From a virus (lineage: Duplodnaviria > Caudoviricetes): a stretch of 52,739 nt of DNA. Below, in pieces: positions 10,501 to 37,151 of this stretch. The stretch's first letter is position 1; the number at the start of each line of letters is the position of its first letter. The DNA lies in the IMG/VR virus record IMGVR_UViG_3300044512_003224, positions 1-52,739 of that record; one strand, 5' to 3'. A program made the translations under genes and the position numbers. The notes below the pieces were generated by a model, which searched no databases, was not told the DNA's origin, and was given only the letters and a program-made list of their open reading frames with translations.

Positions 10501-13500
10501 ACAGGTTAAAGCCTGTATATCTTGATAGCGAAGCTTCAGGTGTGCCAACAATTTTATTAGCAAATGCTCAAGTAGAAGAAAAGTCGTATGTAGCAGGTTT
10601 AACTGCTGATTATATACCTAATAATGGTTTTGGATTTGTTCAGTGTGATGGTATTGTATTTGGTGATACAACAGGTCTTCTAGCAGGTGAGCGTGTTCAT
10701 CTTGGGCCGTCTGATGGGGCACTTCAGATAACAGCTCCTACGTTTCCGTATTTTGCTACTGACATTGGTATAGTTCTTATTGTAGACGGCAATAATGGAT
10801 GTATCTTCTTAGATATTATAGATCACTTTGCTGAAACATTTAGAGTAGTAGGTGAAGCGTATGTAGACGCTGACTTAACAGTTGGAGGTAACCTTTCAGT
10901 TTTAGGCACTGAGTCAATTACCTCTGTAAACTCGCTTGCAGTTTCAAACTCATTTATGTATCTAAACTCTGGTGATACAATTGGCGACTCTGGTACTACA
11001 TATATCGGTACAGGTCTTGATGATGGTACTTTAACAGGTCATTATACTGGTCCAATTACTGAAACATTCAATGTAATGATTAATACAACAGGTACCCCAG
11101 ATACTTTTGATTTTACTCTTGATAATTTTGCTACAAATGCATTAGTTGGTGTTTCTATAACAGGCGGTGATCAAACACTCGCAAACGGAATTTCAATTAA
11201 ATTTGAAGCTACTACAGGACATACAGCAGGAGATCAATGGAGTGGAGTTGCAGCCCCTTCTAATATAGATACAGGTTGGGTATCGAATCGTAACACAGGA
11301 CTTAGTGAGCCAGGCTATACTCATCTTGGTAGCTTTTTTGACGTTTCTGATTCAAAATTCAAATTTTTTAAAGAATATGATCCAGAACCTGAAGGTACAA
11401 TTAATACAGGGCATGCTTCTTTTGAGCTTGGTACAGTTGTTGCAACAACCTTTGAAGGTAATGCAACTAGTGCAGATGCTTTATCTACAGCTCGTGCAAT
11501 TGCACTGGCAGGAGACGTAACAGGTACTCAAAACTTTGATGGATCAGCAGGTATTTCAATTACCGCCTCTCTTGATGTAAATAATTTGACTACATCGACT
11601 GATACAGCTTCTGATGATTTTATTCCCTTTTATGATGTGACAGGTTCTGTAACACGTAAAGCAACTGTTGCTAATCTTGCTTTACAAGGTGTACAAGGTA
11701 CTGATGGTACAACAGGATCACAAGGTGCCACTGGAGCTACTGGCTCTCAAGGTACCGATGGTACTACAGGTTCTCAAGGCGCTACTGGAGCTACTGGCTC
11801 TCAAGGAACTGACGGTACAACAGGTTCTCAAGGCGCTACTGGAGCTACTGGCTCTCAAGGAACTGACGGTACTACTGGATCTCAAGGTGCTACTGGTGCT
11901 ACTGGCTCTCAAGGAACTGACGGTACTACAGGTTCTCAAGGTACTGACGGAACTACAGGTTCTCAAGGAACTGACGGTACAACAGGCTCTCAAGGTGCTA
12001 CTGGAGCTACTGGCCCTCAAGGTACTGACGGCACAACAGGATCTCAAGGTGCTACTGGAGCTACTGGCTCTCAAGGCACTACAGGATCTCAAGGTACAAC
12101 AGGAACTGCAGGAGACACAGGGTCTCAAGGTACAACAGGTAATACTGGAACTCAAGGCGCAACAGGGTCTCAAGGTACAACAGGTAATACTGGATCACAA
12201 GGAGCTACTGGATCAACAGGATCGCAAGGCACCACAGGGTCACAAGGAACTACTGGTAATACAGGCTCTCAAGGTGCTACTGGAGCTACTGGCTCTCAAG
12301 GCACGACTGGTACTGAAGGTGATTCAGGAACTCAAGGAATTGCCGGGGTCAGTGGAGAAGGTGGTGGAGTATTCGTTATTGAGGCTGAACGTAGCGGTAG
12401 TGTAACTTTAAATCAATTTTTTGCTATTGGTAACGGCGCTCAACCTACTAATGGTGTATATATAGCAGAAGATGTTCAATTAGAGCACCTTGCTATTGCT
12501 TCAGATTCTTCACAATCAGCAATAACAGTTGAACTTTTCATAAATGGGTCAGGATCTGGACAAACTGTTTCATTATCTAGCCAAGCTCAGAATATTACAT
12601 CAGGCATAGGTTTAGCTGTTAGTGCAGGTAGCCGAATAACTTTTAAATGTACTTCAGGTAGCGCTAACGCTACCACTGTTGTAGCTGCATGGTTTTTAAC
12701 AGGAGGTGCAAAAGGCGCACAGGGAACTACCGGCTCTCAAGGTACAACAGGTAATACAGGATCACAAGGAACAACAGGCACACAAGGCGTTGAAGGAAAC
12801 TTTGGTGGAGCTACTTTCCATTATAGTTTTGATACTGATACAGGTACTTCTGATCCAGGAAGCGGTGATCTAAAATTTAATAATTCTAATATTCAAAGTT
12901 CTACTGGAATGAGAATAGACGATCAAGACCAAAATGGTGATGATATACAATCATTCCTTCGCACAATTGATGATAGCACTAGTGCCATAAAAGGTCATTT
13001 TAGAGTCTCTAATAAAACTAATGCAGATGATTTTGCGCTATTTACTATTTCCTCTTTAACTGAAGAAACTGGTTACTTTTTAGTTCAATCTAATTACGTA
13101 TCTGGACCTACAAGCTCGTTTACTAACGGTGAAGAACTTATAATCACCTTTGCCCGAACTGGTGATAAGGGTGATACAGGTAACACAGGATCACAAGGAG
13201 CTACAGGTTCAACAGGTTCTCAAGGCGCAACGGGTGCTACTGGTTCTCAAGGCGCAACGGGTGCTACTGGTTCGCAGGGTACTACAGGAAATACTGGTTC
13301 TCAAGGTGCAACAGGAAATACTGGTTCTCAAGGTGCTACTGGTACACAAGGAGCTACAGGATCTACAGGTTCTCAAGGTGCAACTGGATCTACAGGATCA
13401 CAAGGCACAACTGGATCTCAAGGAGCTACAGGATCAACAGGATCTCAAGGCGCTACCGGCACTCAGGGTACAACAGGTAACACAGGTACTCAAGGAACAA

Positions 13501-14159
13501 CCGGTAATACTGGTTCTCAAGGAACAACAGGCACTCAAGGTGCTACAGGTAATACTGGCTCACAAGGTACGACTGGTAATACCGGGTCACAGGGAGCAAC
13601 AGGTGCTCAAGGTACAAGCTTTGATACAACTGGTGACAAAACACTTGTTGGTAATTTAACTCTTGAATCAACCGATAGTGGCAGTAGCGCTGCACCAACA
13701 CTAGGTTTGTATAGAAATAGCTCATCACCTGCTGGTCAGGACGACTTAGGAGTAATGGCTTTCCAAGGTGAAGATGCAAATGGTGATAAAATTGAGTATG
13801 CTGAAATTGGTGCTCAAATCTATAGCACAGGCCCTAGTAGTCCTCAAGGTATGTTAGGCTTTAGTGCTGTAAAAGCCGGTACTATGACAGAAATGATTAG
13901 AATATCTGGATTTCATGATACTCTGTTTTCAAACCAAGATGTAAAGCTTTTCACAAATGTAGATCTAATATTTACAGGACCTACAAATGATGGTAACCAA
14001 ACTACAATAACAACAGAAACTCAGACAGCTGCCCGCACTATAACTTTACCTGATGCAACAGGAACCGTCGCTCTTACCTCAGACTTACCTACCAATCAAG
14101 ACTATGGATTGGTAACTGGAGGAGTTGACGGATCTGAAGATTATGGAAGCGTTGCATGA
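7548..14159 (+). CDS. giant collagen-like/coiled-coil fibre protein (2203 aa)
   Basis: AAGGA RBS; N-terminal KITDLT fibre motif, Asn-rich coiled-coil repeats, four Gly-X-Y blocks, RTITLP[ND]ATGTV motifs, C-terminal DYG..DYGS. Confidence 0.9.
7700..9340 (+). repeat. eight copies of a 25-32-aa coiled-coil repeat in three blocks
   Basis: SNLTANL[VI]QIEANVN[VA]VQDNV; 75-nt period around 8425-8660; boundaries approximate. Confidence 0.85.
9597..10116 (+). repeat. collagen-like Gly-X-Y block 1
   Basis: [12 protein letters not shown] triplets; contains a 117-nt near-exact tandem duplication (9843 and 9960). Confidence 0.9.
11685..12350 (+). repeat. collagen-like Gly-X-Y block 2
   Basis: ([18 protein letters not shown])n, 54-nt period, then GNT variants. 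Confidence 0.9.
12704..13615 (+). repeat. collagen-like blocks 3 (~12704-12800) and 4 (~13161-13615)
   Basis: [15 protein letters not shown] triplets separated by a globular domain. Confidence 0.85.
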
Positions 14160-17327: not shown

Positions 17328-18582
17328 CGAGTTAAGAGGTATCAGAAAATGGGTTGCAGATAGACTTAAGCTAAATCCTGCTCAACCTTCTATCGCTTCT
17401 TTAGAACCTTACGCTTCTCCTGAAACAATCGTTGACTTTGAACAAGCTTATCGTGAGATCGAGGTTGTTCATCGTTCTATTGATATGATTATTAATGCTT
17501 GTGTAGAAGTACCTTTAATTGTTGAAGGGCAAAGTCCTGCTAAAAAAGTTAACAAACTTTTAAATATCAAACCAAACCCTTTTGAAGATCGTGTTCGTTT
17601 ATTTAGACGAGCAATTTTAGATTTTATTCTAGATGGAAATGCATTTTTTTACTATGATGGTGCAGATTTATATTTATTACCTGCAAACGATGTTGAGGTA
17701 GTTCCTGATGAACGCACTTTTGTATCTCATTACAACTATTTAGTATCGAACCAAGGTGCACAAGACTTTTACGGTTTTGGTGGTGGTAAAAATACTCGTA
17801 AAGCTGAGGCGATTCAGTTTGCTCCAGAAGAAATTATTCATATTATGGCTGAAAATGAACTTTCAATATTTAGAGGAACTTCAAAGCTCAAGCCAATATT
17901 AAAACTTATGGAACTTTATCACTATATGATTAGATTTCAACGTCAATTCTTTAAAAATAATGCGCTTCCAGGGTTTGTTCTTACTACTGATAATATCTTA
18001 TCTCAACGAGTTAAACAGAGATTGTTAGAAGCATGGAAGTCTACCTATACTACTATATTTGACGGCGCAAGAAACCCTGCTATTTTAGATGGTGGACTAA
18101 AGATAGATTCATTTTCAACTGTAAATTTTGATCAACTTGATTTTGAAGACTCCATAGAGCGTATTCAACAAGATATGGCTAAAGCTTTAGGTGTGCCTTA
18201 TGTGCTATTAAAATCTGGAAATAACGCTAATATAGATGCTAATCAAAAATTATTTTATCTACACACAGTAATGCCTATGTTAACTCAGTTTTGTTCAGCT
18301 TTTGCACATTTCTTTAATAATGGTGTTACAGTACGTCCTGATAAACTTGCAATTCCTGCGCTTCAACCAGACAATAGAACGCAAGCAATTTATTATTCAA
18401 CTCTCGTAAACACAGGAATTATAACCCCAAATGAAGCTCGTGAGGGATTAAGATTTCCAAAATTAGATAATAATGATAACATAAGAGTACCACAGAATAT
18501 CACTGGTAGTGCGACTGACGCTACCCAAGGTGGAAGACCTCCTGGCGAGGAAACACTAAATGAGGAAGATAATAATGGATAA
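17317..18582 (+). CDS. portal protein (HK97/T5-type)
   Basis: LLNIKPNPF, DGNAF, FFKNNALPG, GIITPNEAR. Confidence 0.95.
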   Translation: MADDELRGIRKWVADRLKLNPAQPSIASLEPYASPETIVDFEQAYREIEVVHRSIDMIINACVEVPLIVEGQSPAKKVNKLLNIKPNPFEDRVRLFRRAILDFILDGNAFFYYDGADLYLLPANDVEVVPDERTFVSHYNYLVSNQGAQDFYGFGGGKNTRKAEAIQFAPEEIIHIMAENELSIFRGTSKLKPILKLMELYHYMIRFQRQFFKNNALPGFVLTTDNILSQRVKQRLLEAWKSTYTTIFDGARNPAILDGGLKIDSFSTVNFDQLDFEDSIERIQQDMAKALGVPYVLLKSGNNANIDANQKLFYLHTVMPMLTQFCSAFAHFFNNGVTVRPDKLAIPALQPDNRTQAIYYSTLVNTGIITPNEAREGLRFPKLDNNDNIRVPQNITGSATDATQGGRPPGEETLNEEDNNG

Positions 18583-21268
18583 AACATTATATTTAAATAG
18601 CTCCTTTGAAAGTAAAGCTTTTAAAAAAGGCTCTAAGTCTCTTAAAATTGCTGGATATGCTAATACTACAGTTAAAGATCGCGCTGGCGATGTTGTAACT
18701 GCAGAAGCTTGGGCTAAAGGCGTAGAAAACTTTAGACGTAATCCAGTTCTTTTATACCAACATAAGCATGACTGCCCTATTGGTAAAGTAGAAAAGATTC
18801 AAGTCGATAAAAAAGGTCTTTACGTAGAAGGAATGATCTCAGAAGCAGCAGAAAAAACACACGGTGTACAAACTCTTGTTAAAGATGGCGCGCTAAAAAG
18901 TTTTTCTGTAGGTTTTAGAGTAAAAGATGGAAAATATAATAGAGACGACGATTCTATGTTAATTACAGATGTTGAGCTACTTGAGATTTCAGTAGTATCA
19001 GTTCCGTGTAACCAAGATTCTCTATTTTCTATTCGTAAAAGTTTTGAATCTGATCAAGATTATAAAGAATTTGTAAAAACACTTGATGAAGTATCAAGCG
19101 ATGAATTAAAAATGATGCGTAGTATAAAGGCTGGAATCACCGATGTACAGAATGGACATTATCATACCGTTGAAATGGACGAAAATGGAAACGGAGTTAC
19201 TACATACGCATCTCATATGTCCAACCACGCACACAAAGTTGTAAGTGGTGTTGTACTAGAGGCTGAGGGTCATACTCATGCTATAACAATGATGGGTGTT
19301 CCAATTCATAATATGGAGAACGAGGAAGTTGTAAATGAACGTCCTTTATCTCCTTCAGAGGAGGATGCAATGTCTCAAGATAAGACGGATATTGTTGAAG
19401 AAACTAAAGACATCTCTGAAGTAACCGAAGATGCAGTAGAAACAACTGAAGAAGTTGCGAAAACTGTTGAAGAAGTAACTGATGAAAAGTCTGAAACTGA
19501 CTCAACAGAGCTTGAAACTAAAGCGACTGCCGAAGAGCATATTGATGATATAGAAAAAGATGATTTAGAGGATGAGTTAGAAATTCGTGATCCTAATGAG
19601 TCTATTCCTATGGTTAATTTGTTATCAGCAAGCCCAGAGGAACTTCAGCATGGTGATTTAGTTAATTACAACGAAAAAATGTTTAGGGTAACTAAAATAG
19701 CAACTGCCCAATCACCAATCTTTAAATTTTTAGAGGTTGACGCAGATGGTAAAGAAAGTGATAATGTTCTTAATGTGAATGCAGATGAACTTTCACAAGT
19801 CGATGCCAAAAATAATACTAAGAGTGAAGACGAAGTTTCTAACGCAAGTCTGACTAAAGAGCTTCACAATATTTCTGATAAGGAGAAAGACGAAATGGCT
19901 GATCAAGTCGTAGATACTATCGATCTAGAAACTGCTAAAAAAGAAGCAGCAATTGAGATCAAAAAAGATGCTACTCCGGTAGTAGAAGTGTCTGAGCCTC
20001 AAGTTGCAGAACTGGTTGAAAAAGCCGGTGAAGCTATTATAACAGAGTCAGACGCTAAAGAAAAATCTGATTACACTCCTCGCGAAAGCGAGCAGGTATC
20101 TGAGTTAAAATCTCAGATCGCAAAATACCAAGAAGAAGTTAATGCACTTCAGCGTTCTAAAATGCATTATCAAGAGTCCTCACGTAATCAACAGCAGTTC
20201 TCAGAGAAGGACCAAGCAAACGCAGTTATGCTTGCTAAAATGTTGAACAGACGTGATGTATTTGACACAAAGATTGGCCAGCGTATGAAAGCTGTTACAA
20301 CTGTGGATCAATTCTTGAGCAACTTCTCACAAAACATCTATACAGAGATGGAACAGCAACTTGTAGTTGCACCAATGTTTAATCGTGTAGCTGTGGATGC
20401 AAAAACATTCCGCGTACCAGTTGCCGATGAAGACACTGATGGTGATGTAGCACAGTTTGCATCAGGAACATTTGCAACAGGTATTGCAGATGCAAGTCGT
20501 GTACCAACAAGCAACCAAAACACCATCTCATCTGTAGACTTTACTCCACACAAGTTTATGGCAACAACTCACTTAGCAAAAGACGAAGAAGAAGACACAG
20601 TTCTTCCTTTACTCGACTTTTTACGTGCAGCAGCGACTCGTCGTTTAGCACGCGCTATTGATAAATCAATTCTACGTGGAACAGGTGCAGGAGCAGGCTT
20701 TACAGCATCACCTACAAATGCTATCTCAGCAGGTACAGGTTATGCTTCTGTTATCGAAGGTATTACAAACCTAACAACTGACGCTTCTCTCGAAGTATCA
20801 ACAGGTTCTGCCAACGATAAAGCTGATCCTTCTGATATCGCTTCAGCTCGTAGCACCCTAGGTAAATATGGTCTTCAGCTTGGTAACGATCTCGTATTCG
20901 TTACTTCAATTGAAGGTTATAACAACCTTGTAACAACATCAGACTTCCAGACTGTAGATAAGTTCGGTCCTAACGCAACATATCTAACTGGTTCAGTTGG
21001 TGCTGTATACGGTATTCCAATCGCTATCTCTGAGTTCTTAGATGGTGTTGGATCAACAGGTAACCACCTTGGTGTTCTACTTTACAAGCCAGGATTCATG
21101 ATCGCAGAAAGACGCGGTATTGAGATCGAGAGCGAGTACGAACCACGCCAGCAGGTCACTGCAATGTACATGTCAACACGTATTGACTTCAAAGCATTGA
21201 CTACAAACGCAAGTTCAGCATTGGATTCTTCAAAGTATTCATACGCTGTAACAGTTGCAGCTGGTTAA
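18575..21268 (+). CDS. fused prohead protease / acidic linker / HK97-fold major capsid protein
   Basis: IAGYAN, LLYQH..PIG, FSVGF, LLEISVVSVPCN (HK97 protease); C-terminal ~457-aa capsid (LARAIDKSILRGTG, GAVYGIPI); no internal stop; GAGG RBS favours ATG 18575. Confidence 0.92.
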   Translation: MDKTLYLNSSFESKAFKKGSKSLKIAGYANTTVKDRAGDVVTAEAWAKGVENFRRNPVLLYQHKHDCPIGKVEKIQVDKKGLYVEGMISEAAEKTHGVQTLVKDGALKSFSVGFRVKDGKYNRDDDSMLITDVELLEISVVSVPCNQDSLFSIRKSFESDQDYKEFVKTLDEVSSDELKMMRSIKAGITDVQNGHYHTVEMDENGNGVTTYASHMSNHAHKVVSGVVLEAEGHTHAITMMGVPIHNMENEEVVNERPLSPSEEDAMSQDKTDIVEETKDISEVTEDAVETTEEVAKTVEEVTDEKSETDSTELETKATAEEHIDDIEKDDLEDELEIRDPNESIPMVNLLSASPEELQHGDLVNYNEKMFRVTKIATAQSPIFKFLEVDADGKESDNVLNVNADELSQVDAKNNTKSEDEVSNASLTKELHNISDKEKDEMADQVVDTIDLETAKKEAAIEIKKDATPVVEVSEPQVAELVEKAGEAIITESDAKEKSDYTPRESEQVSELKSQIAKYQEEVNALQRSKMHYQESSRNQQQFSEKDQANAVMLAKMLNRRDVFDTKIGQRMKAVTTVDQFLSNFSQNIYTEMEQQLVVAPMFNRVAVDAKTFRVPVADEDTDGDVAQFASGTFATGIADASRVPTSNQNTISSVDFTPHKFMATTHLAKDEEEDTVLPLLDFLRAAATRRLARAIDKSILRGTGAGAGFTASPTNAISAGTGYASVIEGITNLTTDASLEVSTGSANDKADPSDIASARSTLGKYGLQLGNDLVFVTSIEGYNNLVTTSDFQTVDKFGPNATYLTGSVGAVYGIPIAISEFLDGVGSTGNHLGVLLYKPGFMIAERRGIEIESEYEPRQQVTAMYMSTRIDFKALTTNASSALDSSKYSYAVTVAAG
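19737..19765 (+). promoter_or_regulatory. intragenic promoter upstream of internal capsid start
   Basis: TTGACG-17 nt-GATAAT, 130 nt before in-frame AAGGAG-N9-ATG (19895). Confidence 0.6.
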
Positions 21269-21295: not shown

Positions 21296-21324
21296 AGGGG
21301 GAGGCGGACAACGTCTCCCCTTTT
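21296..21324 (+). terminator. rho-independent terminator after capsid gene
   Basis: GGGGAGGCG-gacaa-CGTCTCCCC-TTTT. Confidence 0.8.
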
Positions 21325-23013: not shown

Positions 23014-24365
23014 TGGCAAGATATGCACAAACACTACAGACATTTTTTCCTAATAAAAAGATTCGTGTAGATGTTGGCTTACGATCTCGCGAAGCAAAGA
23101 AACTTACAGGTATAAGAACTCAAGTTACTCGCGCAGTTTCTGATTTTATATCTGAAGAACTTAAAAAAGGTGGCTTTGGAGGAAAACTTTCGTCCAAACA
23201 AAAAAATGCTTTTAGAAAAGCTGCAGGAACTAGAGGAGATCCTTCTCCTGACGCTTTAATAGACTTAGATGAGTTTGAGTCTGCTCTACGTGATATTGGA
23301 AAGCCAATGTCTCTTAGCGAAAGCGCTATTATTAAAGATAATGTTCAGCGCATTACTACAGCTGAAACTAAAGTTACAGGTGTTGGTTCTACTGATACAA
23401 TAGAAATTACAAGCTTTCAAATTGGTAAGGGTAGAGAACAAGATGCTAAAAAAATACAAACTGCTGCTAAAGGCAGATCTAATATAGCAGGTCAAGATGC
23501 GGTTAACTTACTTTTTTCAAAACCGTTTAAACAATATAGAGATAGACTATTTATCGCTGCTAAAAATAAACTTGAAAATTTAACACTAGTTTCTACAATA
23601 GATCCAGCAGGTAAAACAGGTTTAGATGTTAGATTTATTGCAAATCCGATTGATAAAATACCGCTAACTAAAGCTAATATTTTAAAATATTTTGATATTC
23701 GTTTTAGGCCTAGGAGTGGTAAGCCAGACCAATTTAGACTTACAATTTCAACAAAAGCCTCCTACACAAGAGAAATAAAAAAACAAGCAACTGATATAAC
23801 AAAGTTAATACAACGTGCTCAACTTAAAGCTGTGGGTGGCGAAACGTTTGGTGAAGGCTTTTTAGGTTATATAAGTCGTCAATTATCTACAGGAGAGCGT
23901 AAAACAAAAGATGTTGGAGCATTTTTAGCTATTGGTTTAGCGTTTGCTCGTGAATTTGATTCAAAGCCTTTTACTATTAAAACAGCATTAAATGAGCCAT
24001 CTCCACAAGCTTCTTTACTGACAACTGTAGCGGCTAAAAATCAGCGTCGCAAAGAAAAAGAAACTTTAGATACAGGCTTTATTTCTGGAGTACAACTTTC
24101 AAAACTAGTTCAAGCACGATTAGGCCAAACAATGGAAAAAAGCGGAATGGCAGAACCACCTGATATGAAGGAACGTACTGGTAGATTTAGACGTAGTGTT
24201 CAAGTAATTCCTAACTATAGACGTGCAGTGATGCGCTATCTTTATAATCCTCTTTATGATGGAAATCTACGTTATGGATATCGCCCTGATCTACAAGTAG
24301 CTGAGGCAACTCGTGATGTAGTGCAGGCAATTTTTAAAAGACAATTTGCAATAGTGAGAGCATAA
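23013..24365 (+). CDS. tail completion/neck protein (T5 p143-like)
   Basis: Position; basic; C-terminal RTGRFRRSV...YLYNP.Y motif. Confidence 0.65.
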   Translation: MARYAQTLQTFFPNKKIRVDVGLRSREAKKLTGIRTQVTRAVSDFISEELKKGGFGGKLSSKQKNAFRKAAGTRGDPSPDALIDLDEFESALRDIGKPMSLSESAIIKDNVQRITTAETKVTGVGSTDTIEITSFQIGKGREQDAKKIQTAAKGRSNIAGQDAVNLLFSKPFKQYRDRLFIAAKNKLENLTLVSTIDPAGKTGLDVRFIANPIDKIPLTKANILKYFDIRFRPRSGKPDQFRLTISTKASYTREIKKQATDITKLIQRAQLKAVGGETFGEGFLGYISRQLSTGERKTKDVGAFLAIGLAFAREFDSKPFTIKTALNEPSPQASLLTTVAAKNQRRKEKETLDTGFISGVQLSKLVQARLGQTMEKSGMAEPPDMKERTGRFRRSVQVIPNYRRAVMRYLYNPLYDGNLRYGYRPDLQVAEATRDVVQAIFKRQFAIVRA

Positions 24366-24820
24366 TGCCGACTTCAAGAAGAACTGAGATAATAGATTTT
24401 TTAGTAACCCAACTCAAAGAGATTGACGGCGAAGTTTCAGGGTTTGATTCAGCTTATACTTATAACACAAATTTATTTAATAATGTTTTTAGAAAATTAA
24501 AATTTTTAGATGAGGTAAATGACTTTCCAGCACTATATGTAGCAGCAGGCACCGAAATTCGAGATTTTAATTCTAAAAGTTTGACGGTAGCGACTTTAGA
24601 CGTTACCATAAGATCATACGTTTATGGAGAAGATAATTCTCAAAGCCTCGCAGATGACTTAGTTCAAGATATAGAGCATGTCATTTACTCGATTGGTGAC
24701 AATCCTGACAAGGGAATACTTGATATAATAATAGAAAGTATATCTACTGATGAGGGATTAGCTATTCCGTATGGTCTCGCTGAGGCTCAACTTACCGTAG
24801 TCTATAGACTAGAAAATTAA
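24365..24820 (+). CDS. tail terminator protein (T5 p142-like)
   Basis: Immediately before tail tube; FLDEVNDFP, TDEGL.IPYG. Confidence 0.85.
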   Translation: MPTSRRTEIIDFLVTQLKEIDGEVSGFDSAYTYNTNLFNNVFRKLKFLDEVNDFPALYVAAGTEIRDFNSKSLTVATLDVTIRSYVYGEDNSQSLADDLVQDIEHVIYSIGDNPDKGILDIIIESISTDEGLAIPYGLAEAQLTVVYRLEN

Positions 24821-24830
24821 GGAGAAAAAA

Positions 24831-26102
24831 ATGGCATCTCTTAACCTACAGAGAAACTCAGAAGTGTTTATGTCAACTGTTGATTTGATCAACGGTGCAC
24901 AAGTTACTGCTATGACACCTGAGAACACATGGAAACTTGAGGTTCTTGCAGGATTTGCAGTAACCTCTTCAGCCGCGACTCAGGATATTACCAGTCTTGA
25001 ATCAGGCACTAACCCAGATAGATCACAACAGCGATTTAATACAGCTATTAACCCTGTTGATTGGAATCTTCAAGTTTACTTACGCCCTACTGGCGCTATC
25101 ACTGGTGCAGCCGCTGATACAACTGATGCAGGTACAAACCAAACTGGTAACGTAAAACCTGTTGCTGATTGGTTTATGTGGCAGTCAATGGTATCAAATA
25201 CTAAAGTAGCTTCTGGAGTTACAGAGCAATCAGTTTGGGAATCAGGTGGAAAACTTCGCACAACTAATGTTGCTGCAGGCACTGGTTCACACTCTACTCG
25301 TTCTAACTTCTCAACCGCTACTGAAAATCATATGTACTTTAAACTTGATAACGTCTTTTATCAAGTATCAAATGCTACTGTTAACCAAGCAACGGTTGAC
25401 GCAGGAATTGAAGAAATTGCTACAGTTACATGGACAGGTTTTGGTACAACCCTAAAAGAATTAACTGATTTACCAAGAAATAATGCTGTCTCAGTATTTG
25501 GTGGAATCTTAAATGATGGATCTACTGTAACAGCTAACTCAAATGTTTCTGAGGTAACAGAAACTGTTGCTTATCACCCATTCAATCAAATGAATGTAGC
25601 AGGATCTATTGGTACAAACTCATTTATTAAGAATCGTCTTAGCACAATTGAGTTTCATCACCAAGCATCAGCTGGAGCGTCTGATGAGAAGTTTACCTTC
25701 CCGGTCACTGCACTAACTTTTGATTATAATAACAATATTACATACTTAACTCCAGAAGAACTTGCTGCTCTTAACGAGCCTATTGGCCAGTTTACTGGAA
25801 CTCGTGCAGTCACAGGATCTGCAACTATGTACTTAAGATCTGGTGATTTAGAATCAGCAGGTTTCTTACGTAATATTTCAGAAGACTCACGTACTTCTTC
25901 AGCACAAACTTCAAACGCTAACTTAATTGTTGGTGGATCAACTGCTCCATATGTTGCTTTCCAACTTGATGCAGTTCAGTTTGAGTTTCCACAGTTAGCA
26001 ACAGAAGATGTTATTTCTATGACTGTTAACTTTGTTGGACAAGAGCCTTCAGCTTCAAAAGGTACTGGTGGAGAAGTATCAATCTTTGCTGCAAAGTCTT
26101 AA
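24831..26102 (+). CDS. major tail tube protein (T5 pb6-like)
   Basis: SLNLQRNSEVFMST, FNTAINPVDW...YLRP, NNITYLTPE, FTGTRAVTGS; AAGGAG RBS. Confidence 0.9.
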   Translation: MASLNLQRNSEVFMSTVDLINGAQVTAMTPENTWKLEVLAGFAVTSSAATQDITSLESGTNPDRSQQRFNTAINPVDWNLQVYLRPTGAITGAAADTTDAGTNQTGNVKPVADWFMWQSMVSNTKVASGVTEQSVWESGGKLRTTNVAAGTGSHSTRSNFSTATENHMYFKLDNVFYQVSNATVNQATVDAGIEEIATVTWTGFGTTLKELTDLPRNNAVSVFGGILNDGSTVTANSNVSEVTETVAYHPFNQMNVAGSIGTNSFIKNRLSTIEFHHQASAGASDEKFTFPVTALTFDYNNNITYLTPEELAALNEPIGQFTGTRAVTGSATMYLRSGDLESAGFLRNISEDSRTSSAQTSNANLIVGGSTAPYVAFQLDAVQFEFPQLATEDVISMTVNFVGQEPSASKGTGGEVSIFAAKS

Positions 26103-26113
26103 TTAAATGTTTC

Positions 26114-26226
26114 TGAGGGGGAACATTAACTATTTACCAGAAGAGTACCCGTTACTTGCGATTCAAGGTCCCCCCTCACCTAAGAAAAGCAGATATGTAA
26201 TGGGTACTCGTTTTTTTAGAGGGGAA
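26114..26226 (+). promoter_or_regulatory. structured intergenic RNA element (terminator-like stem plus pseudoknot/anti-SD)
   Basis: 13-bp stem 26143-26155/26197-26209 followed by T7; loop CCCCCTCA (26171-26178) complementary to upstream TGAGGGGG (26114-26121) and to the SD GAGGGG (26219-26224). Confidence 0.65.
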
Positions 26227-26230
26227 TCTA

Positions 26231-26662
26231 ATGAGTAAAATTAAAAATAAAATTGTAAAAGAGTCATCAACCTGGGTAGAGTTTCCAGATATAGATGGTT
26301 TTGAGATTAGTCTTCAGTTCTTAACTAGAGATGATCTAATGAAAATTCGTAATGCGTCATTAACTTATAAGTTTAATAAACGCACTCGTCAACGTGAAGA
26401 AGAAATTGATAATGATAAGTTTTTAGAGCACTATGCCGAAAAAGCTATCAAAGACTGGAGAGGCCTTAAGATGAAACATCTTCCAGTTCTACTTCCAGTT
26501 GATATATCTGGTGATGATCCAGAAGAACCTGTTGATTATTCAGAAGAAGATGCAATTGAGCTATTGAAAAATTCAACAATCTTTGATCAGTTTGTCACAG
26601 ATACTATGAATGACTTTGAACAATTTTCTAAGAAAAAAGCTGAGACAAACGAAAAAAACTAA
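26231..26662 (+). CDS. tail assembly chaperone (gpG-like)
   Basis: Between tail tube and tape measure; IKDWRGL; ends at slippery A AAA AAC TAA. Confidence 0.85.
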   Translation: MSKIKNKIVKESSTWVEFPDIDGFEISLQFLTRDDLMKIRNASLTYKFNKRTRQREEEIDNDKFLEHYAEKAIKDWRGLKMKHLPVLLPVDISGDDPEEPVDYSEEDAIELLKNSTIFDQFVTDTMNDFEQFSKKKAETNEKN

Positions 26663-27027
26663 TTGATTACCTCCAAAACTCAATGCATGGCGGAGGTATG
26701 GATTTTGACCAATATTTGCTTATGTGTGAGCAAATGGGTTGGGAACCTAAAGAAGAAGAAATGCCGCTTGACCCTTCTTCTTTGTCGTATGAGTGTCAAC
26801 AAGCGTTAGTTCTTTTAAACGCACTACCAGATAACTGGGAAGGCATGAACGGTGTTTGGTTAGGAAAAGACTATAGTGGTTTGAGTGATATCATGGATAT
26901 TTATCAAATTGATAATAGACGTGAAGTTTTTGAACTTCTTAAAGTTTGCGAGTCTGAGTTAAGTAAATACTATGCTCAAAAACGCAAAGAGCAAGAACAG
27001 CTTTCAAAAGCTAAGAGAGGAAGATAA
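26653..27027 (+). CDS. tail assembly chaperone -1 frameshift extension (gpT-like)
   Basis: -1 frame open from the slippery heptamer 26653-26659 through the 26683..27027 ORF; WEGMNGVWLGKDYS. Confidence 0.8.
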   Translation, partial: KKLIDYLQNSMHGGGMDFDQYLLMCEQMGWEPKEEEMPLDPSSLSYECQQALVLLNALPDNWEGMNGVWLGKDYSGLSDIMDIYQIDNRREVFELLKVCESELSKYYAQKRKEQEQLSKAKRGR

Positions 27028-30000
27028 TTGGCTAAACAGGTTATTGAAACTAGATTTCAAGCTAAGGGTGGAAAACAAGTTGAAGCTGAAACTAATCGTA
27101 TTGGCAAAGCTCAAACTCGTTTAGCTCAAGGATCAGCTTCTGCAGGTAGATCTTTTGCTGCTCAATCTCAAGGACTTGGTGGAGTGGTTGGTGTCTATGC
27201 AGCAGCTGCTGCTAACGTTTTTGCTTTAACAGCTGCTTTTAGTGCTCTAAACAGAGCCGCTCAGTTTGAAACGATTATTAGAGGTACTGAAGCATTTGCT
27301 TCTTCGATTGGAACTTCTGCTACTGCTGTTCTTAAAAGTATTAAAGAAATAACTAATGGTCAGTTAACCTTAATAGAATCAGCTGAACAAGCTAACTTAG
27401 CTCTTTCAGCAGGTTTTAATACTGATCAAATTAGTGAGTTAGCAGATGTAGCTAATAAAGCCTCAAAAGCTCTTGGTAGAAACTTATCAGACTCTTTTCA
27501 GCGTATTACTCGTGGTGCTATAAAATTAGAACCTGAACTATTAGACGAAATTGGAATCTTTACTCGAATAGAGCCTGCAGTACAGGCATACGCAGCTTCT
27601 GTAGGTAAATCTGCAAGTCAACTTACACAGTTTGAACGTAGACAAGCTTTTGTTAATAAAGTCATCGAAGACGGATCAAAAGCTTTTAAAGATATTGATA
27701 CATCAGTTCTTTCAACACAAGAAAAATTTGAAAAACTTGTAGCTAATTTTTCAGACTTAGCTTTAATTACTGGTAAAATTATAGCAGATTCTTTAGTCCC
27801 ATTAGTTGACTTCTTGAATAAAAACGTTGGTAATCAATTTTTACTACTAGGATCAATTGGTTTATTAGTTTTTAACAGGTTACGGATTGGAATCACTGAT
27901 TTTGCTACTAAAGGCTTAACTGCTGGCGCTAATGGCTTATCAAGATTCGCCGATAGCATTACTCAATCTAGACTTGATACTAAAGCTTTGGCTTCTGAAT
28001 ATAAGGCTGCTCAAGCAGCATTTAAAGGAGGAGGAGCTTTCACGGATGCTGGTAGAGGACTCGGTGCATCTCTAAAAAGACAATTAGGAGCTGGTGCTTT
28101 ATCTACTCAAGAAGCTGTTCAAGCACAAAAAGATATTAATACATTAAAAAATAATGAAAAAGCTGTTCAAGCAGCTTTAAATAAAAATATTTCAGCAGGT
28201 GTTGGAAATACTAAACAATTCAAGGCAGAATTAGACCAATCTAAAATTAGGATGGAGGGTTTGAATGCTTCATCAAAGGCAGTTAACGCACAGCTTAAAG
28301 CCTCTTCACCTGCTGCAAAGTCTCTTGCAGGGGGATTGAATATTGCGGCAGCAGCTGGAACAGCTCTTGCTAGTGCTTTATCAAGAGCTTTTTTGTTTTT
28401 GAATATAGTAGTAGGAGTATTATCTACAGCTCAATTTGTGTTATCGTTTTTTGATATTGATCTTTTTGGTGCTATATCAGATTTTATTAAAAAAACAGGA
28501 GCAGCTGCTAGAGCTACAAAAACAGGACTTGATGGTTTAGCTGCAGCAGCTAAAAAGAATTCAGAAGCTTTTAAGGGTTTAGCAGAAGAGCTTAGTACCA
28601 CTGGAGAAGTTATTGAGAGAGTTTTAGGTTCAGATCTGATTAGAAAATCAGATAGAGAAGTAGCTCAACTTACTACTAGGCTTACAAAAAGACTAGAAAA
28701 ACTTCAAGAAGCTCAAGCTAAAGCAGGTAAGATAACTTCTAGAGATGTTGGTGGAGCAGCAAATGCTCAAGGCTTAACCCTTGGGATATTTAGCAACACA
28801 ATAGATAGAAGTAAATTAGATGCAAAAATAATTAAACTTCAACAAGAGCTGCTAGACCTTGGAGTAGCTGCAGAACTTGTTCAGAAAAAATTTGACTTAC
28901 TAGCTCAAGCATCTACTATCTTATCTCAATCAACAGATCGATCTTTGGAATCTTTTGTAACCTTGATTGGTACTGAAAACTTATTGATTGATGGTAGTGA
29001 TCAATTAATATTCAAGCTTGGCGAATTTGAACAAGTATTAGGTACTGTAGACGGTAAAACTGTAACACTAAATGATAGTAATAAAAATTTATCTGGTGCA
29101 TTTGGCGTAGTAAGGCAAACACTAGCAACTTTAACACAAGGTCTAAAAGAGGGATCTTTACAAGGAGATCAATTAGATAAAATTTTAGGAGTTTTACGGA
29201 TCGCTTTAAAAGAGGCAAAAGATGAAGCCGCAAGCTTTGCAGGTGTTATTGGTGAAGAAGCTACCGCTGCTGTAGAAAAATTTTCTAGAGATTCAATAGA
29301 GGCGATTGATAAATTAGCCCAAGAAATTATTGAGATTAATAATTTAACTGACAGATTAGCTAAAAAATCTGGAGCAGCTTTTGCTGCTCTTGACGACGCT
29401 GTTTTAGACGGGTTAATATCTAAATCTGGAAAAATAGCTAAAACAGATGCAGAACGCACTAAAAATAAAGCAGAGCTTTTAGCTAATGCAAAGAGTGAAT
29501 TAGAAACTTTAGAAAAACAATTTTTAGCAGGAACAGCAATTGAAGGTTCAGAAGGTAAAATAGCAGCTTTAAAAGAATTAATTCAAACTTCTGAAAAAGC
29601 CGCGCTTGGAAATCAACTTTTAAATGTTAAAGCTATTGAGGATCAAAGAGTTCAGCAAGAAAAGATAGAAAAAACATCTTTGAGACAATTAAAAATTAAT
29701 GCTGCTCAACTTGTTGCTGCTGAAAGAAAACTTAGCCGCCAAAGAGAAGAGTTACTACTACAGGAACAAATTTCAAGAGTTTCAAATGAGATAACTTTAG
29801 AAAAAAAATCATTAGAGATTGATAATGCTAAACTTGAAAATTTTAAGCAACAAATTTCTATTATTCAAGAGCTTAGATCTTTAGAGTTAAGTAGGTTAGG
29901 TATACAAAGAGAAATAGGAGATGTAATATTTAAAAGAAATCAACAACTCGAAGCAGCTTCTGATGCTGGATCTCTTAGGGCAGCTCAAAATGCTATTCAA

Positions 30001-31551
30001 AACCAATTAGATTCTCCTTTAACTTCAGAAAGAGAAGCTGTTAATTTACGCTTAAAAGCAGTAGAATTACAAGCAGCATCTGATGAGAAAGCTTTAGACA
30101 GACAAGCAAAGCTAATTGAAAGAGAGAAAAAAACTAGTTTAGATCGCTTAGAAAACCAAAAAGACATTCTAACTAAAGAGGCAGAAGAGCAACAAAAAAT
30201 AGTTGCTTCACGACTTCAAATTTTTGACCAAGAGTTATCTATCTTAAATAAACAAAAAGATCTTCAACTTTCGGAAGCTAATTTAGAATTACTGAAAAAA
30301 GAAAATCAAATTAAAAATATTGCTGATAATATGAACGTACAAAAAGCTCAAGCAAGGATAAATGCTGATGAGAAAAAAGACGCATTAGGCTTGATTTCAG
30401 CGGAGGCTCAGCTTTTAAAACAAAAAGTTATAGCTAATAAAGAAGCGGTTGTAGATGAGACACGACTTTTAAATGCAAGTGCAGAGCAATTAAGAGCACA
30501 AGGAAAAAATGTATCAAATGTAGAAGATCCTGCTAATGTAAATATAAAAAATACAGAATCATTAATTACTGCATTAGGTGGTCAAGCATCTGCTATAGAC
30601 GCTACTTTAAACTCCCAATTAGCTCTGATAACTACTAATTCAAATCTTCAAGGAGAGCAAGCATCTTTTGAAGCTAGTCAGATAGAGAAAAGAATTGAAA
30701 ATTTAGTAAGCCAAGGCTTATTGGAAAATGAACTTAATGCAGTAAAGAAAAAACAAATTTTAGATGAATTAGCCGGTATAGATTTAATATTAACTAGTAA
30801 ACTAGAAAACTTGACAGAAGAAGAACGATTAGTTAGAGAAAATGCTGTGAGTAGGTTAGAAGCTTTAGGGTTTGAAAAAGAAGAAATCCAACAGATTTTA
30901 AAATTTGCTAGAGAAAGAGCTGAATATGAGCTTAGTTTTAGAAAAAGATTTGATAGTGCTGTAGGAGCTTCTGCAGATACTTTAGAAACTAAAACAATTT
31001 CTTCTTTGAACGAACTTAATTCGGCTTTTGTTGAGGGGTCTTTAACTTTTGACTTAGCAAAAAATAAATTCAGTGAGTTTGCTGGTTCTCTAATTAAAGA
31101 TATACAAAAAATATTTTTTCAAGAAACTATTGCTAAACCTGCAGCTGGCTTTTTAAAAGATACTTTTCTTGGTAGCGAAAAAGAAGGTGGTGGAATATTT
31201 AGTAGTCTCTTTGGGATGGGTAAAAATGTAAACGGAGGCTTGATTAGGCACATGGCTTCAGGTGGAATGGCTCGTGACAGAGTTCCAACTCTCCTAGAGC
31301 CAGGCGAATTCGTTGTTCGCAAGCAAGCAGCAAAAGTCGCTGGACCATCTAACCTTGCGTCTTTAAATGCAACTGGACAAATGGGCGGAGGCAATGTTAG
31401 TGTTAATGTTACTAATACAGGAACACCACAAACTGCAGAAGCTTCACAACCTCGCTTTGATGGTGAAAAGATGGTGATTGATATTGTAATGAGAGATTTA
31501 TCAACTAATGGACCAATTAGACGCTCACTTAGAGCAGGAGGAGCTAGTTAA
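27028..31551 (+). CDS. tape measure protein
   Basis: 1507 aa, Ala-rich helical; EPELLDEIGI (T5-like); C-terminal GG..DRVPTLLEPGEFVV. Confidence 0.95.
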   Translation: MAKQVIETRFQAKGGKQVEAETNRIGKAQTRLAQGSASAGRSFAAQSQGLGGVVGVYAAAAANVFALTAAFSALNRAAQFETIIRGTEAFASSIGTSATAVLKSIKEITNGQLTLIESAEQANLALSAGFNTDQISELADVANKASKALGRNLSDSFQRITRGAIKLEPELLDEIGIFTRIEPAVQAYAASVGKSASQLTQFERRQAFVNKVIEDGSKAFKDIDTSVLSTQEKFEKLVANFSDLALITGKIIADSLVPLVDFLNKNVGNQFLLLGSIGLLVFNRLRIGITDFATKGLTAGANGLSRFADSITQSRLDTKALASEYKAAQAAFKGGGAFTDAGRGLGASLKRQLGAGALSTQEAVQAQKDINTLKNNEKAVQAALNKNISAGVGNTKQFKAELDQSKIRMEGLNASSKAVNAQLKASSPAAKSLAGGLNIAAAAGTALASALSRAFLFLNIVVGVLSTAQFVLSFFDIDLFGAISDFIKKTGAAARATKTGLDGLAAAAKKNSEAFKGLAEELSTTGEVIERVLGSDLIRKSDREVAQLTTRLTKRLEKLQEAQAKAGKITSRDVGGAANAQGLTLGIFSNTIDRSKLDAKIIKLQQELLDLGVAAELVQKKFDLLAQASTILSQSTDRSLESFVTLIGTENLLIDGSDQLIFKLGEFEQVLGTVDGKTVTLNDSNKNLSGAFGVVRQTLATLTQGLKEGSLQGDQLDKILGVLRIALKEAKDEAASFAGVIGEEATAAVEKFSRDSIEAIDKLAQEIIEINNLTDRLAKKSGAAFAALDDAVLDGLISKSGKIAKTDAERTKNKAELLANAKSELETLEKQFLAGTAIEGSEGKIAALKELIQTSEKAALGNQLLNVKAIEDQRVQQEKIEKTSLRQLKINAAQLVAAERKLSRQREELLLQEQISRVSNEITLEKKSLEIDNAKLENFKQQISIIQELRSLELSRLGIQREIGDVIFKRNQQLEAASDAGSLRAAQNAIQNQLDSPLTSEREAVNLRLKAVELQAASDEKALDRQAKLIEREKKTSLDRLENQKDILTKEAEEQQKIVASRLQIFDQELSILNKQKDLQLSEANLELLKKENQIKNIADNMNVQKAQARINADEKKDALGLISAEAQLLKQKVIANKEAVVDETRLLNASAEQLRAQGKNVSNVEDPANVNIKNTESLITALGGQASAIDATLNSQLALITTNSNLQGEQASFEASQIEKRIENLVSQGLLENELNAVKKKQILDELAGIDLILTSKLENLTEEERLVRENAVSRLEALGFEKEEIQQILKFARERAEYELSFRKRFDSAVGASADTLETKTISSLNELNSAFVEGSLTFDLAKNKFSEFAGSLIKDIQKIFFQETIAKPAAGFLKDTFLGSEKEGGGIFSSLFGMGKNVNGGLIRHMASGGMARDRVPTLLEPGEFVVRKQAAKVAGPSNLASLNATGQMGGGNVSVNVTNTGTPQTAEASQPRFDGEKMVIDIVMRDLSTNGPIRRSLRAGGAS

Positions 31552-36418: not shown

Positions 36419-37151
36419 AATACACTCTTCTCTTCAAAAATTTTTCAGTGATAGCTCTTATACTGTAGATCTACATACTTATTTTGATGTAGTTCCTTAT
36501 CTCAACTCTATGCATCCAAAGTTTAAAAAGTATATGCTTGATGTTGAGCAGAATGAGTTTACTGAAAATGTATTTATTTTAGACTCAGACTATCGTATAG
36601 TAGAGCCTGATGAAGCCCAATTGCGACGAATAAAAGATGACGATACATTATATTTAGTTCCTGGTATAACTGGTGGCGGAGGTAAACGAGGCGGACTATT
36701 TGCAATGGTTGCGATGATTGGTTTTGCAGCAGCTACTGGAGGCTTAGGTGCTTTTAGTCTTGGAGGAGCGGGGGCAGCAGCTCTTCCTGCTTCAGCTACC
36801 GCAGTTAACACTTCAACAGCCGCTGGAGTAGCTACTGCAAGTGGAGGAGCTGGTGGAGGTCTTTTCAGTGCATTCTCTTCACTTCCAGGATTCGCTAAAA
36901 ACATACTTGGAAACATAGCTCTTGCGGTTGTTGCATCACTGTTCACCTCAAAACCAAAACCAATGGAAACAGACAATTCTACTCGCGAGAACGGAATGTT
37001 TGGATCATTAACTAACACCTCAGAAAGTGGAACCCCTATTCCTCTTGTTTATGGGCATTTTAGAGTTGCAGGACAGTTCTTAAGTGGGTATATTGATTCA
37101 GAACAACATGGAAAAAATGATGTTGTGAATGTAGGGGACAAATTCTCATGA
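36402..37151 (+). CDS. tail assembly protein I-like (ubiquitin-like plus Gly/Ala hydrophobic segment)
   Basis: LYLVPGITGGGGK, hydrophobic segment, GTPIPLVYG..RVAG; start uncertain (TTG 36378 or 36402). Confidence 0.75.
   Translation: MKAQLKIHSSLQKFFSDSSYTVDLHTYFDVVPYLNSMHPKFKKYMLDVEQNEFTENVFILDSDYRIVEPDEAQLRRIKDDDTLYLVPGITGGGGKRGGLFAMVAMIGFAAATGGLGAFSLGGAGAAALPASATAVNTSTAAGVATASGGAGGGLFSAFSSLPGFAKNILGNIALAVVASLFTSKPKPMETDNSTRENGMFGSLTNTSESGTPIPLVYGHFRVAGQFLSGYIDSEQHGKNDVVNVGDKFS

Follow-up and report, generated by a model that had tools for sequence, protein, structure and literature searches.

The 128-nucleotide (nt) spacer between the major tail (tube) protein gene and the tail assembly chaperone gene of an uncultured tailed virus is almost certainly a genuine folded and conserved RNA. 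The window, i.e. the whole stretch of DNA analysed here, comprises the 52,739 bases of IMG/VR virus record IMGVR_UViG_3300044512_003224, which has a CheckV completeness of 45%. Within the late structural mRNA, the spacer acts in cis as a folded segment, and it is read on the + strand. It forms three hairpins: P1 presents the Shine-Dalgarno (SD)-like sequence UGAGGGG, the 13-base-pair (bp) P2 closes a bent arm that contains P2b, P3b and P3, and P3 presents the anti-SD-like sequence CCCCUCA. Judging from the comparison of related spacers, the G-run and the C-rich loop engage in a loop-loop (kissing) contact. A switch built from these parts is plausible, and we favour it tentatively, closely followed by a static domain that serves as a terminator or stabiliser.

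Conservation of the spacer in related viruses

A search of IMG/VR at the protein level, with the tail protein as query, returned 111 relatives, of which the best 80 (74–96% identity) were kept. Both flanking genes were present in 76 of these 80 loci, and all 76 had a gap of similar length with the same motifs. A pattern scan of viral contigs added at least 19 new true members among the matches listed, while none of the 16 GC-rich chance matches listed with them was fitted by the covariance model described below. A second search of this kind, started from a divergent tube protein, yielded 70 loci with a spacer, all 70 of them with the invariant motifs, and six new sequences; it stayed within the same clade (at least 67% identity) and supplied no variant loops for testing the core pairs of the pseudoknot or the pairing with the SD. 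The final set consists of 75 unique spacers of 119–144 nt; earlier alignments took in 52 and 69 unique sequences.

The covariance model, built from the spacer alignment, gave one full match in 98 of 100 sources, scoring 66–149 bits on the + strand and at most 17.4 bits on the reverse strand. One of the two remaining sources is cut within the element and the other ends ahead of it. In all members the element lies between the major tail protein and chaperone genes. It is single-copy in the window, and the model detected one significant copy in a 112.8-kilobase (kb) relative that is 100% complete according to CheckV. Across the 69 unique sequences, P2 holds 50 G-U cells, which would be A-C mismatches on the opposite strand; from these and from the difference in score between the strands we conclude that the functional molecule is the sense RNA. 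A 141-nt stretch folds at −40.7 kcal/mol (z = −3.22), a value reached by two of 200 shuffled sequences. The + strand of the 52.7-kb window contains GAGGGG seven times, twice in the spacer, and CCCCTC twice, once in the spacer.

The alignments support the fold by compensatory change. RNAalifold recovered P1, P2, P2b and P3 from the 52 unique sequences, with 15 of 24 pairs compensatory. With the pseudoknot included, 96.4% of the cells in this alignment are paired, compared with 90.7% in shuffles (0 of 500 reach the observed value), and sliding the partners by 1–3 columns leaves 44–51% paired. The corresponding values for the 69 unique sequences are 94.9%, 88.9% (again 0 of 500) and 41–52%. No conserved open reading frame (ORF) crosses the spacer, each frame being open in at most five of the 75 spacers, and the spacer lengths fall into all three classes modulo 3 (37, 21 and 17). 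A 43-codon ATG ORF (26107–26238) that spans the whole element in the window is not kept in relatives; with frames not conserved across the 75 spacers, a small ORF or an extension ORF in the spacer was ruled out.

Searching positions 25600–26800 against Rfam 15 in permissive E-value mode gave six matches (E 1.2–9.9), all far under the gathering score and none on 26100–26226, in agreement with the first-pass annotation of this stretch, in which the element was not assigned to a known family. The nearest match was CRISPR-DR50 at 26227–26271, with 20.8 bits against a gathering score of 47. No known aptamer family was matched. A DNA search with the spacer and its flanks found no match in 50,697 phage records. 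A pattern scan of genome contigs gave at least 120 matches, mostly in high-GC bacteria; the covariance model fitted none of the 120 listed, which left no host or prophage lead. In all three cultured T5-like phages examined, the next annotated gene begins 4, 12 or 55 nt after the tail gene, on the opposite strand in the third, and the covariance model found nothing at these three loci. The element is thus limited to this uncultured clade. The stretch and its close relatives occur in estuary and marine metagenomes: of the 21 runs listed, from 15 studies, 20 contain the stretch in whole or in part, and the source sample may be among them. The spacer of locus L032 is nearly identical to those of loci L039, L070 and L256, and the flanking genes of these loci lie far apart on the flanking-gene tree, which suggests mosaic exchange within the clade.

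Description of the spacer element

The element is composed of the following features, in 5' to 3' order.

26106–26127, + strand: P1 hairpin, with arms 26106–26113 and 26120–26127, predicted by RNAfold and RNAalifold.
26114–26121, + strand: SD-like G-site UGAGGGGG (= TGAGGGGG), in the loop and upper stem of P1; putative SD mimic or decoy, and 5' strand of the loop-loop pseudoknot.
26128–26142, + strand: single-stranded linker ending in the largely conserved ACCAG(A)AG; no partner found in the alignments.
26143–26209, + strand: P2 arm.
26143–26155 with 26197–26209: P2, GAGTACCCGTTAC paired with GTAATGGGTACTC, 13 bp, one of them G-U.
26156–26196, + strand: 41-nt loop enclosed by P2, which folds into P2b, P3b and P3.
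26156–26159 with 26189–26192, + strand: P2b.
26163–26164 with 26184–26185, + strand: P3b.
26166–26168 with 26179–26181, + strand: P3.
26169–26178, + strand: apical loop of P3, with the sequence (U/C)(U/C)CCCCCUCA.
26171–26178, + strand: anti-SD-like C-loop CCCCCUCA (= CCCCCTCA), 3' strand of the pseudoknot.
26193–26196, + strand: conserved 4-nt bulge AUAU in the 3' strand of the arm.
26210–26218, + strand: U-rich spacer between P2 and the SD, consisting of G26210, seven T (26211–26217) and A; terminator-like in the window.
26219–26224, + strand: SD of the chaperone gene, GAGGGG, atypical for this phage.

The six lower pairs of P1 have all changed on both sides, with 86% of cells paired in the 52-sequence alignment, and whole clades with unrelated P1 stems still present the G-run. 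In its own minimum-energy fold, P1 pairs four of the eight G-site bases in 63 of the 75 spacers. Its distance from the stop codon of the tube gene ranges from 0 to 16 nt and is at most 10 nt in 55 of 69 sequences; no hairpin is predicted in two. The length of P2 is 13 bp in 54 of the 69 sequences and ranges from 9 to 17 bp. P2b, P3b and P3 are mostly invariant, with 94–98% of cells paired in the 69 sequences, and make the 41-nt loop a continuation of the arm, so that the whole is an extended hairpin of about 22 bp. ACCAG in the P1–P2 linker, the GCAGA segment and the 4-nt bulge (region 26189–26196) are unpaired and conserved, and no pairing partner was found for any of them; they may engage in tertiary or protein contacts.

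The G-site pairs with positions 26171–26178 through seven invariant pairs and a varying eighth. It reads GAGGGG in 74 of the 75 unique spacers and GGGGGG in one, and is preceded by U in 74, while CCCCTCACC in the C-loop is the same in all 75. Because UGAGGGG (74/75) and CCCCUCA (75/75) are essentially invariant, these seven pairs are uninformative either way. The eighth pair is GC in 45 spacers, AU in 18 and GU in nine, with other, unpaired combinations in three. On the flanking-gene tree there are nine independent contrasts in its 5' base; the 3' base changes the same way in four to six of these, the opposite way in none, and not at all in three to five, the contrasts of this last kind being G-U to A-U, which is still paired. 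This amounts to about five independent co-changes with none opposed (median sign-test p 0.06), a rough count given the long branches of the tree and its signs of mosaicism. On these sequence comparisons, the pairing of the G-run with the C-loop is real, and is a loop-loop contact. As the C-loop strand continues directly into the 3' strand of P3, the helix of this contact can stack on P3, and the 1–2-nt 5' part of the loop would cross the groove of the knot, as in classical H-type pseudoknots.

Much of the anatomy had been anticipated in the first-pass annotation, and across orthologous spacers the whole arrangement proved conserved, with compensatory changes. P2, its 41-nt loop, the G-T7 run, the G-run, the C-loop and GAGGGG are all located where they had been placed. 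The P2 stem is real, all 13 of its pairs having changed on both sides with 97.9% of cells paired in the 69 sequences. The C-loop had been expected to pair either with the upstream G-run, in an H-type pseudoknot or in competition with P2, or with the SD of the chaperone gene; co-change in the eighth pair upholds the pairing with the G-run, which does not compete with P2. The position of UGAGGGG in the loop of a covarying P1 hairpin, and that of CCCCUCA as the apical loop of the inner hairpin P3, are new.

The Shine-Dalgarno sequence of the chaperone gene

The SD of the chaperone gene is unusual, as had been pointed out before: other genes in the window use SDs of the AAGGAG type. It reads GAGGGG in 59 of the 75 spacers, GAGGG in 12 and GAGG in four, and is thus of the GAGG type in all of them and never of the usual GGAG type. 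The sequence U-GAGGGG-AA is common to the G-site and the SD. CCCCUC and GAGGGG are able to pair in 94.9% of cells, and the predicted duplex of SD and loop is −10 kcal/mol or stronger in 70 of the 75 spacers. Among the 42 ribosome binding site (RBS) regions of the window, that of the chaperone gene is the strongest complement to the C-loop (−13.3 kcal/mol, compared with a median of −3.3). Of the features expected of an SD-sequestering RNA, an anti-SD complementary to the SD and a competing anti-anti-SD partner are both present, and covariation of SD and anti-SD is absent.

The RBS of a J-like gene (37148), at 37122–37147, contains AGGGGA and pairs with the C-loop at −13.1 kcal/mol. After 43 of the 80 loci had been dropped because no start was found at the expected place, four of the 37 remaining relatives had GGGG and three a duplex at least as strong as −10 kcal/mol, and this fibre gene RBS was rejected as a target in trans, the match being taken as chance.

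Possible function and alternative explanations

The function that we tentatively favour for the element is that of a cis-acting regulator of chaperone and tape-measure output, in which a leaky stop or barrier at P2 is combined with competition between decoy, anti-SD and SD. Such an element would set the downstream output relative to that of the tube protein. Leaky termination, protection of the tube message against 3' decay, or both would be the task of P2 with its U-rich tail, and the decoy upstream and the GAGGGG of the chaperone gene would compete for the C-loop, which would serve as an anti-SD. As long as P1 encloses the decoy, the loop could cover the SD. Opening of P1, for which a ribosome completing translation of the tube gene is the most plausible agent, would let the decoy take the loop and would free the SD, following the 1:2 / 2:3 / 3:4 logic of a relay as in translational attenuation. 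Crude energy sums, which ignore loop and pseudoknot penalties, average −20.1 kcal/mol for state A (P1 closed and loop on the SD) and −19.2 kcal/mol for state B (decoy on the loop, with the remnant of P1), and values this similar would fit a four-segment relay. In its full form, this would be a ribosome-operated three-way relay housed in a terminator-like hairpin: the ribosome on the tube gene opens P1, the decoy captures the loop and the RBS is unmasked, so that synthesis of the low-copy proteins would be licensed by, and scaled to, tube translation across a 128-nt gap. We regard this full form as doubtful. In a bolder variant, the G:C loop-loop helix would mimic an SD:anti-SD helix and be read directly by the 30S subunit.

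A number of results speak against the switch. Loop and SD show no covariation, with no pair changed on both sides: the loop is constant, and the G-run of the SD, two to four bases long, does not change in step with it. The duplex of decoy and loop is stronger than that of SD and loop in 69 of the 75 spacers (mean −17.2 and −13.0 kcal/mol, respectively), and the decoy may simply retain the loop at equilibrium. In the four spacers with GAGG only, the SD duplex drops to about −7 kcal/mol, and state B is the lower in only 18 of the 75, on sums that leave out the penalties mentioned above. Since the SD begins 7–13 nt past the base of P2, and the loop is at the far end of the approximately 22-bp arm, helix geometry suggests that their pairing would need a sharp bend of the arm at the bulges. 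P1 starts 11–16 nt past the stop codon in 12 of 69 sequences, out of direct reach of a terminating ribosome, and the overall range of 0–16 nt therefore weakens the idea of a precisely placed terminating ribosome as the trigger. Extension of the knot to ten pairs was rejected: 14 cells are unpaired in the ninth pair and 14 in the tenth, and the ninth gives a null result on the tree. The number of further pair types (43, compared with 40.8 in shuffles, and reached by 75 of 500) does not stand out. Finally, the first eight nucleotides after P2 contain on average 4.8 T, with six or more in 19 spacers, exactly five in 29 and four or fewer in 27; the T-run is thus poorly conserved, and termination would be at best leaky.

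These results also bear on the first-pass annotation, whose interpretation is partly supported. It had proposed alternative folds, of which the partial closure of the G-run in P1 and the nearly level sums of the two states have stood, and the loop:SD pairing has been left with no covariation and a geometry that looks strained. Its terminator has lost ground with the T-run, and so has its suggestion that a terminating ribosome could set the fold.

The close rival is a static folded domain without a switch, which we consider possible, if on the unlikely side. P2 and the U-rich tail would here be a leaky terminator and/or a barrier to 3'-exonucleases, leaving more tube message than chaperone and tape-measure message; the knot would only provide compactness and stability, and may also insulate the chaperone start from ribosomes finishing the tube gene. 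Both the duplex energies and the geometry favour decoy over SD as partner of the loop, and short helices are invariant throughout the element, so that no third partner is required to explain why the knot is invariant. In the window, a G and seven T directly follow the 13-bp GC-rich stem, and the tail is T-rich on average, with five or more T in 48 of the 75 spacers; as noted, it is weak or broken in the other 27. A second hairpin-plus-T site (21296–21322), whose T-rich tail follows a hairpin with 5' and 3' arms rich in G and C, respectively, is found in a 78-nt gap after a 902-amino acid (aa) protease/major head gene. It is the only other such site after an abundant structural gene in the module, so abundant structural genes here tend to precede hairpin-plus-T sites. 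The 13-bp stem of P2 is within the length usual for terminators (about 5–14 bp), but the 41 nt between its arms are outside the usual form with a short loop (3–8 nt), and a terminator scan of the window does not list the site. Short contigs that belong to relatives and map to the region from the tube gene to the chaperone gene, spacer included, are present in four metatranscriptome runs. One 151-nt RNA-library record ends at 26217, the last T, which is a very weak hint, coming from one study and one record of read length; other RNA-library contigs run over the T-run, at 25976–26248 (X17 record 5) and 26161–26315 (X19 record 18). All of these are assembled contigs that may include DNA and that show neither ends nor levels, and the parts they do not cover carry no meaning. 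As more than 20 kb of tightly packed tail genes lie downstream and no promoter-like site was found in the spacer, termination cannot be efficient. It is plausible that P2 is a leaky terminator or 3' barrier, though not the conserved core of the element. A static domain leaves two features unexplained, namely the atypical, loop-matching GAGGGG of the SD and the half-burial of the decoy in P1.

The remaining explanations are less probable. An operator for a phage or host RNA-binding protein, for instance in autogenous control by the chaperone or another late protein, is improbable; its target would be the folded domain or the two near-identical UGAGGGGAA sites. The shared U-GAGGGG-AA would suit such a protein, and the invariant or nearly invariant unpaired GCAGA, AUAU-type bulge and ACCAG linker are typical of tertiary or protein contacts, but no candidate protein and no similar site elsewhere in the window were found, and most relatives lack the GGGG in the RBS of the J-like gene. 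We think it slightly less probable still that RNase III (or RNase E) splits the tube message from the chaperone and tape-measure message here, leaving a protective 3' hairpin. Phage T7 RNase III sites consist of a lower stem, an internal loop and an upper stem, and the long imperfect arm of P2, P2b, P3b and P3, with its conserved asymmetric 4-nt bulge in the 3' strand, appears to resemble them. Such a site would leave P1 and the knot unexplained, and neither processed ends nor joints were observed in the RNA-library contigs, which are unable to reveal them. A small RNA derived from the 3' untranslated region, ending at P2 and the U-run and acting through its C-rich loop on G-rich RBSs in trans, is very improbable: in its favour are the C-rich loop at the tip of P3, the terminator-like end seen in the window and the possible pairing of the J-like gene's RBS with the loop, but that pairing is not conserved, only one other context complementary to CCCCTC is present in an RBS of the window, and the U-run is poorly conserved. 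Least probable of all, and largely refuted, is a signal downstream of the stop codon that would stimulate readthrough or frameshifting and so lengthen the tube protein. A pseudoknot-forming hairpin does begin 0–16 nt past the stop codon, and the 43-codon ORF of the window is in the +1 frame, but no frame is open across more than five of the 75 spacers, the spacer lengths occupy all three classes modulo 3, and in-frame readthrough in the window reaches a stop after eight codons.

Genomic context

The spacer is surrounded by a siphovirus tail module, in which genes were named by PHROGs. The following features flank the element.

24365–24820: tail terminator (PHROGs).
24831–26102, + strand: major tail (tube) protein (MTP), 423 aa; PHROG 3575, E 1.3e-44; stop codon TAA at 26100–26102.
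Between the two genes, 128 nt: the spacer described here.
26231–26662, + strand: tail assembly chaperone, gpG-like, 143 aa; PHROG 313, E 6.9e-14; ATG at 26231.
26653–26659: slippery sequence A_AAA_AAC, directly before the chaperone stop codon (26660–26662).
26683–27027, + strand: −1-frame ORF, putative gpT-like part of the frameshifted chaperone; PHROG 3914, E 1.1e-14.
27028–31551, + strand: tape measure protein, 1507 aa; PHROG 3779, E 4.1e-36.

The major tail protein is distantly similar to pb6 of T5, with major tail proteins of Demerecviridae as top tblastn matches (27–29% identity). The canonical −1 heptamer A_AAA_AAC, followed by a −1-frame ORF with a chaperone/tape-measure PHROG match, corresponds to the usual gpG/gpGT frameshift layout. 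Genes in the window are tightly packed, and the 128-nt spacer is among the few long gaps. Upstream of the tail module are terminase, portal and fused protease/major head genes. The last of these is a single ORF (18560–21268) for the 902-aa protein mentioned above, of which the N-terminal third is similar to head maturation proteases and the C-terminal half to major head proteins; it appears to be a fused protease/capsid gene. A 2203-aa protein (7548–14159) with many matches to tail-fibre and collagen-like repeats is encoded upstream of the terminase, apart from the main tail module. No tRNA genes were found in the window.

Significance and comparison with known systems

Long-tailed phages need hundreds of tube subunits for every handful of chaperone and tape-measure molecules, the latter being required in small amounts. 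To our knowledge, detailed accounts of how this ratio is established exist for very few phages. The element described here, of about 130 nt and with strong covariation support, is located exactly at the boundary between the tube and chaperone genes, and holds an SD look-alike, an anti-SD look-alike and a real SD. If the relay is true, it would be a new way of coupling cistrons across a structured gap; if the static model is true, the element would exemplify a knotted type of terminator or stabiliser. In both cases, it represents a new RNA family with a working covariance model, for an abundant uncultured clade of estuarine and marine phages of T5-like genome size.

A full-text search of the literature found no description of an RNA element at the boundary between tail-tube and chaperone genes. 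A catalogue of 8,495 novel structured-RNA candidates has been derived by covariation from intergenic regions of IMG/VR phages, some of them located directly upstream of a gene and 1,241 with a predicted terminator (PMC10690425, 2023). Its main text, which leaves the listing of candidates to the supplements, does not contain the word 'tail' and gives no anatomy, pseudoknot or mechanism for the spacer motif (PMC10690425). The spacer element may be among the unnamed entries of this catalogue.

The tail modules of cultured Demerecviridae (T5-like phages) differ from the one described here in that no spacer element follows the major tail gene in the three examined. Rho-independent terminators and attenuators after abundant phage structural genes share with the element a GC-rich stem, here of 13 bp and followed in this window by G and U7, directly after the tail-tube gene. 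The element departs from them in its 41-nt loop, which is internally folded and invariant in sequence, in a U-run that is poorly conserved, in the additional hairpin and knot, and in the read-through required for more than 20 kb of tail genes.

In the MS2 coat-replicase interaction and in the long-range pseudoknot of Escherichia coli rpmI-rplT (L35-L20), cistrons are reportedly coupled by pairings that are opened by ribosomes. As in these systems, an intercistronic or long-range pairing that includes a pseudoknot would control access to a downstream RBS in a polycistronic mRNA, with upstream translation as a possible trigger. There, however, the masked RBS pairs with upstream coding RNA or a repressor binds, whereas here a separate decoy would compete for a dedicated loop, within a 128-nt non-coding spacer.

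Leaders of the ermC/cat type, which act by translational attenuation, and riboswitch expression platforms operate by a four-segment logic of SD, anti-SD and anti-anti-SD. The element resembles them in having these parts, with the anti-anti-SD itself enclosed in a hairpin that a ribosome could open, and in the similar predicted strength of its alternative pairings. It differs in that the spacer has no leader peptide or known ligand, the upstream ORF being a structural gene of 423 codons, and in that the anti-SD is an apical loop inside a 13-bp stem, so that both of its pairings would be pseudoknots; the masking of the SD, moreover, is not accompanied by covariation. Kissing-loop complexes, both intermolecular and intramolecular, are known from ColE1 RNA I/RNA II and from the L2-L3 contact of riboswitches. 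The element shares with these the joining of two hairpin loops by seven to eight mostly G-C pairs, in a knot that can stack on P3, whereas the kissing partners here are an SD look-alike and an anti-SD look-alike, placed beside a real SD of the same sequence.

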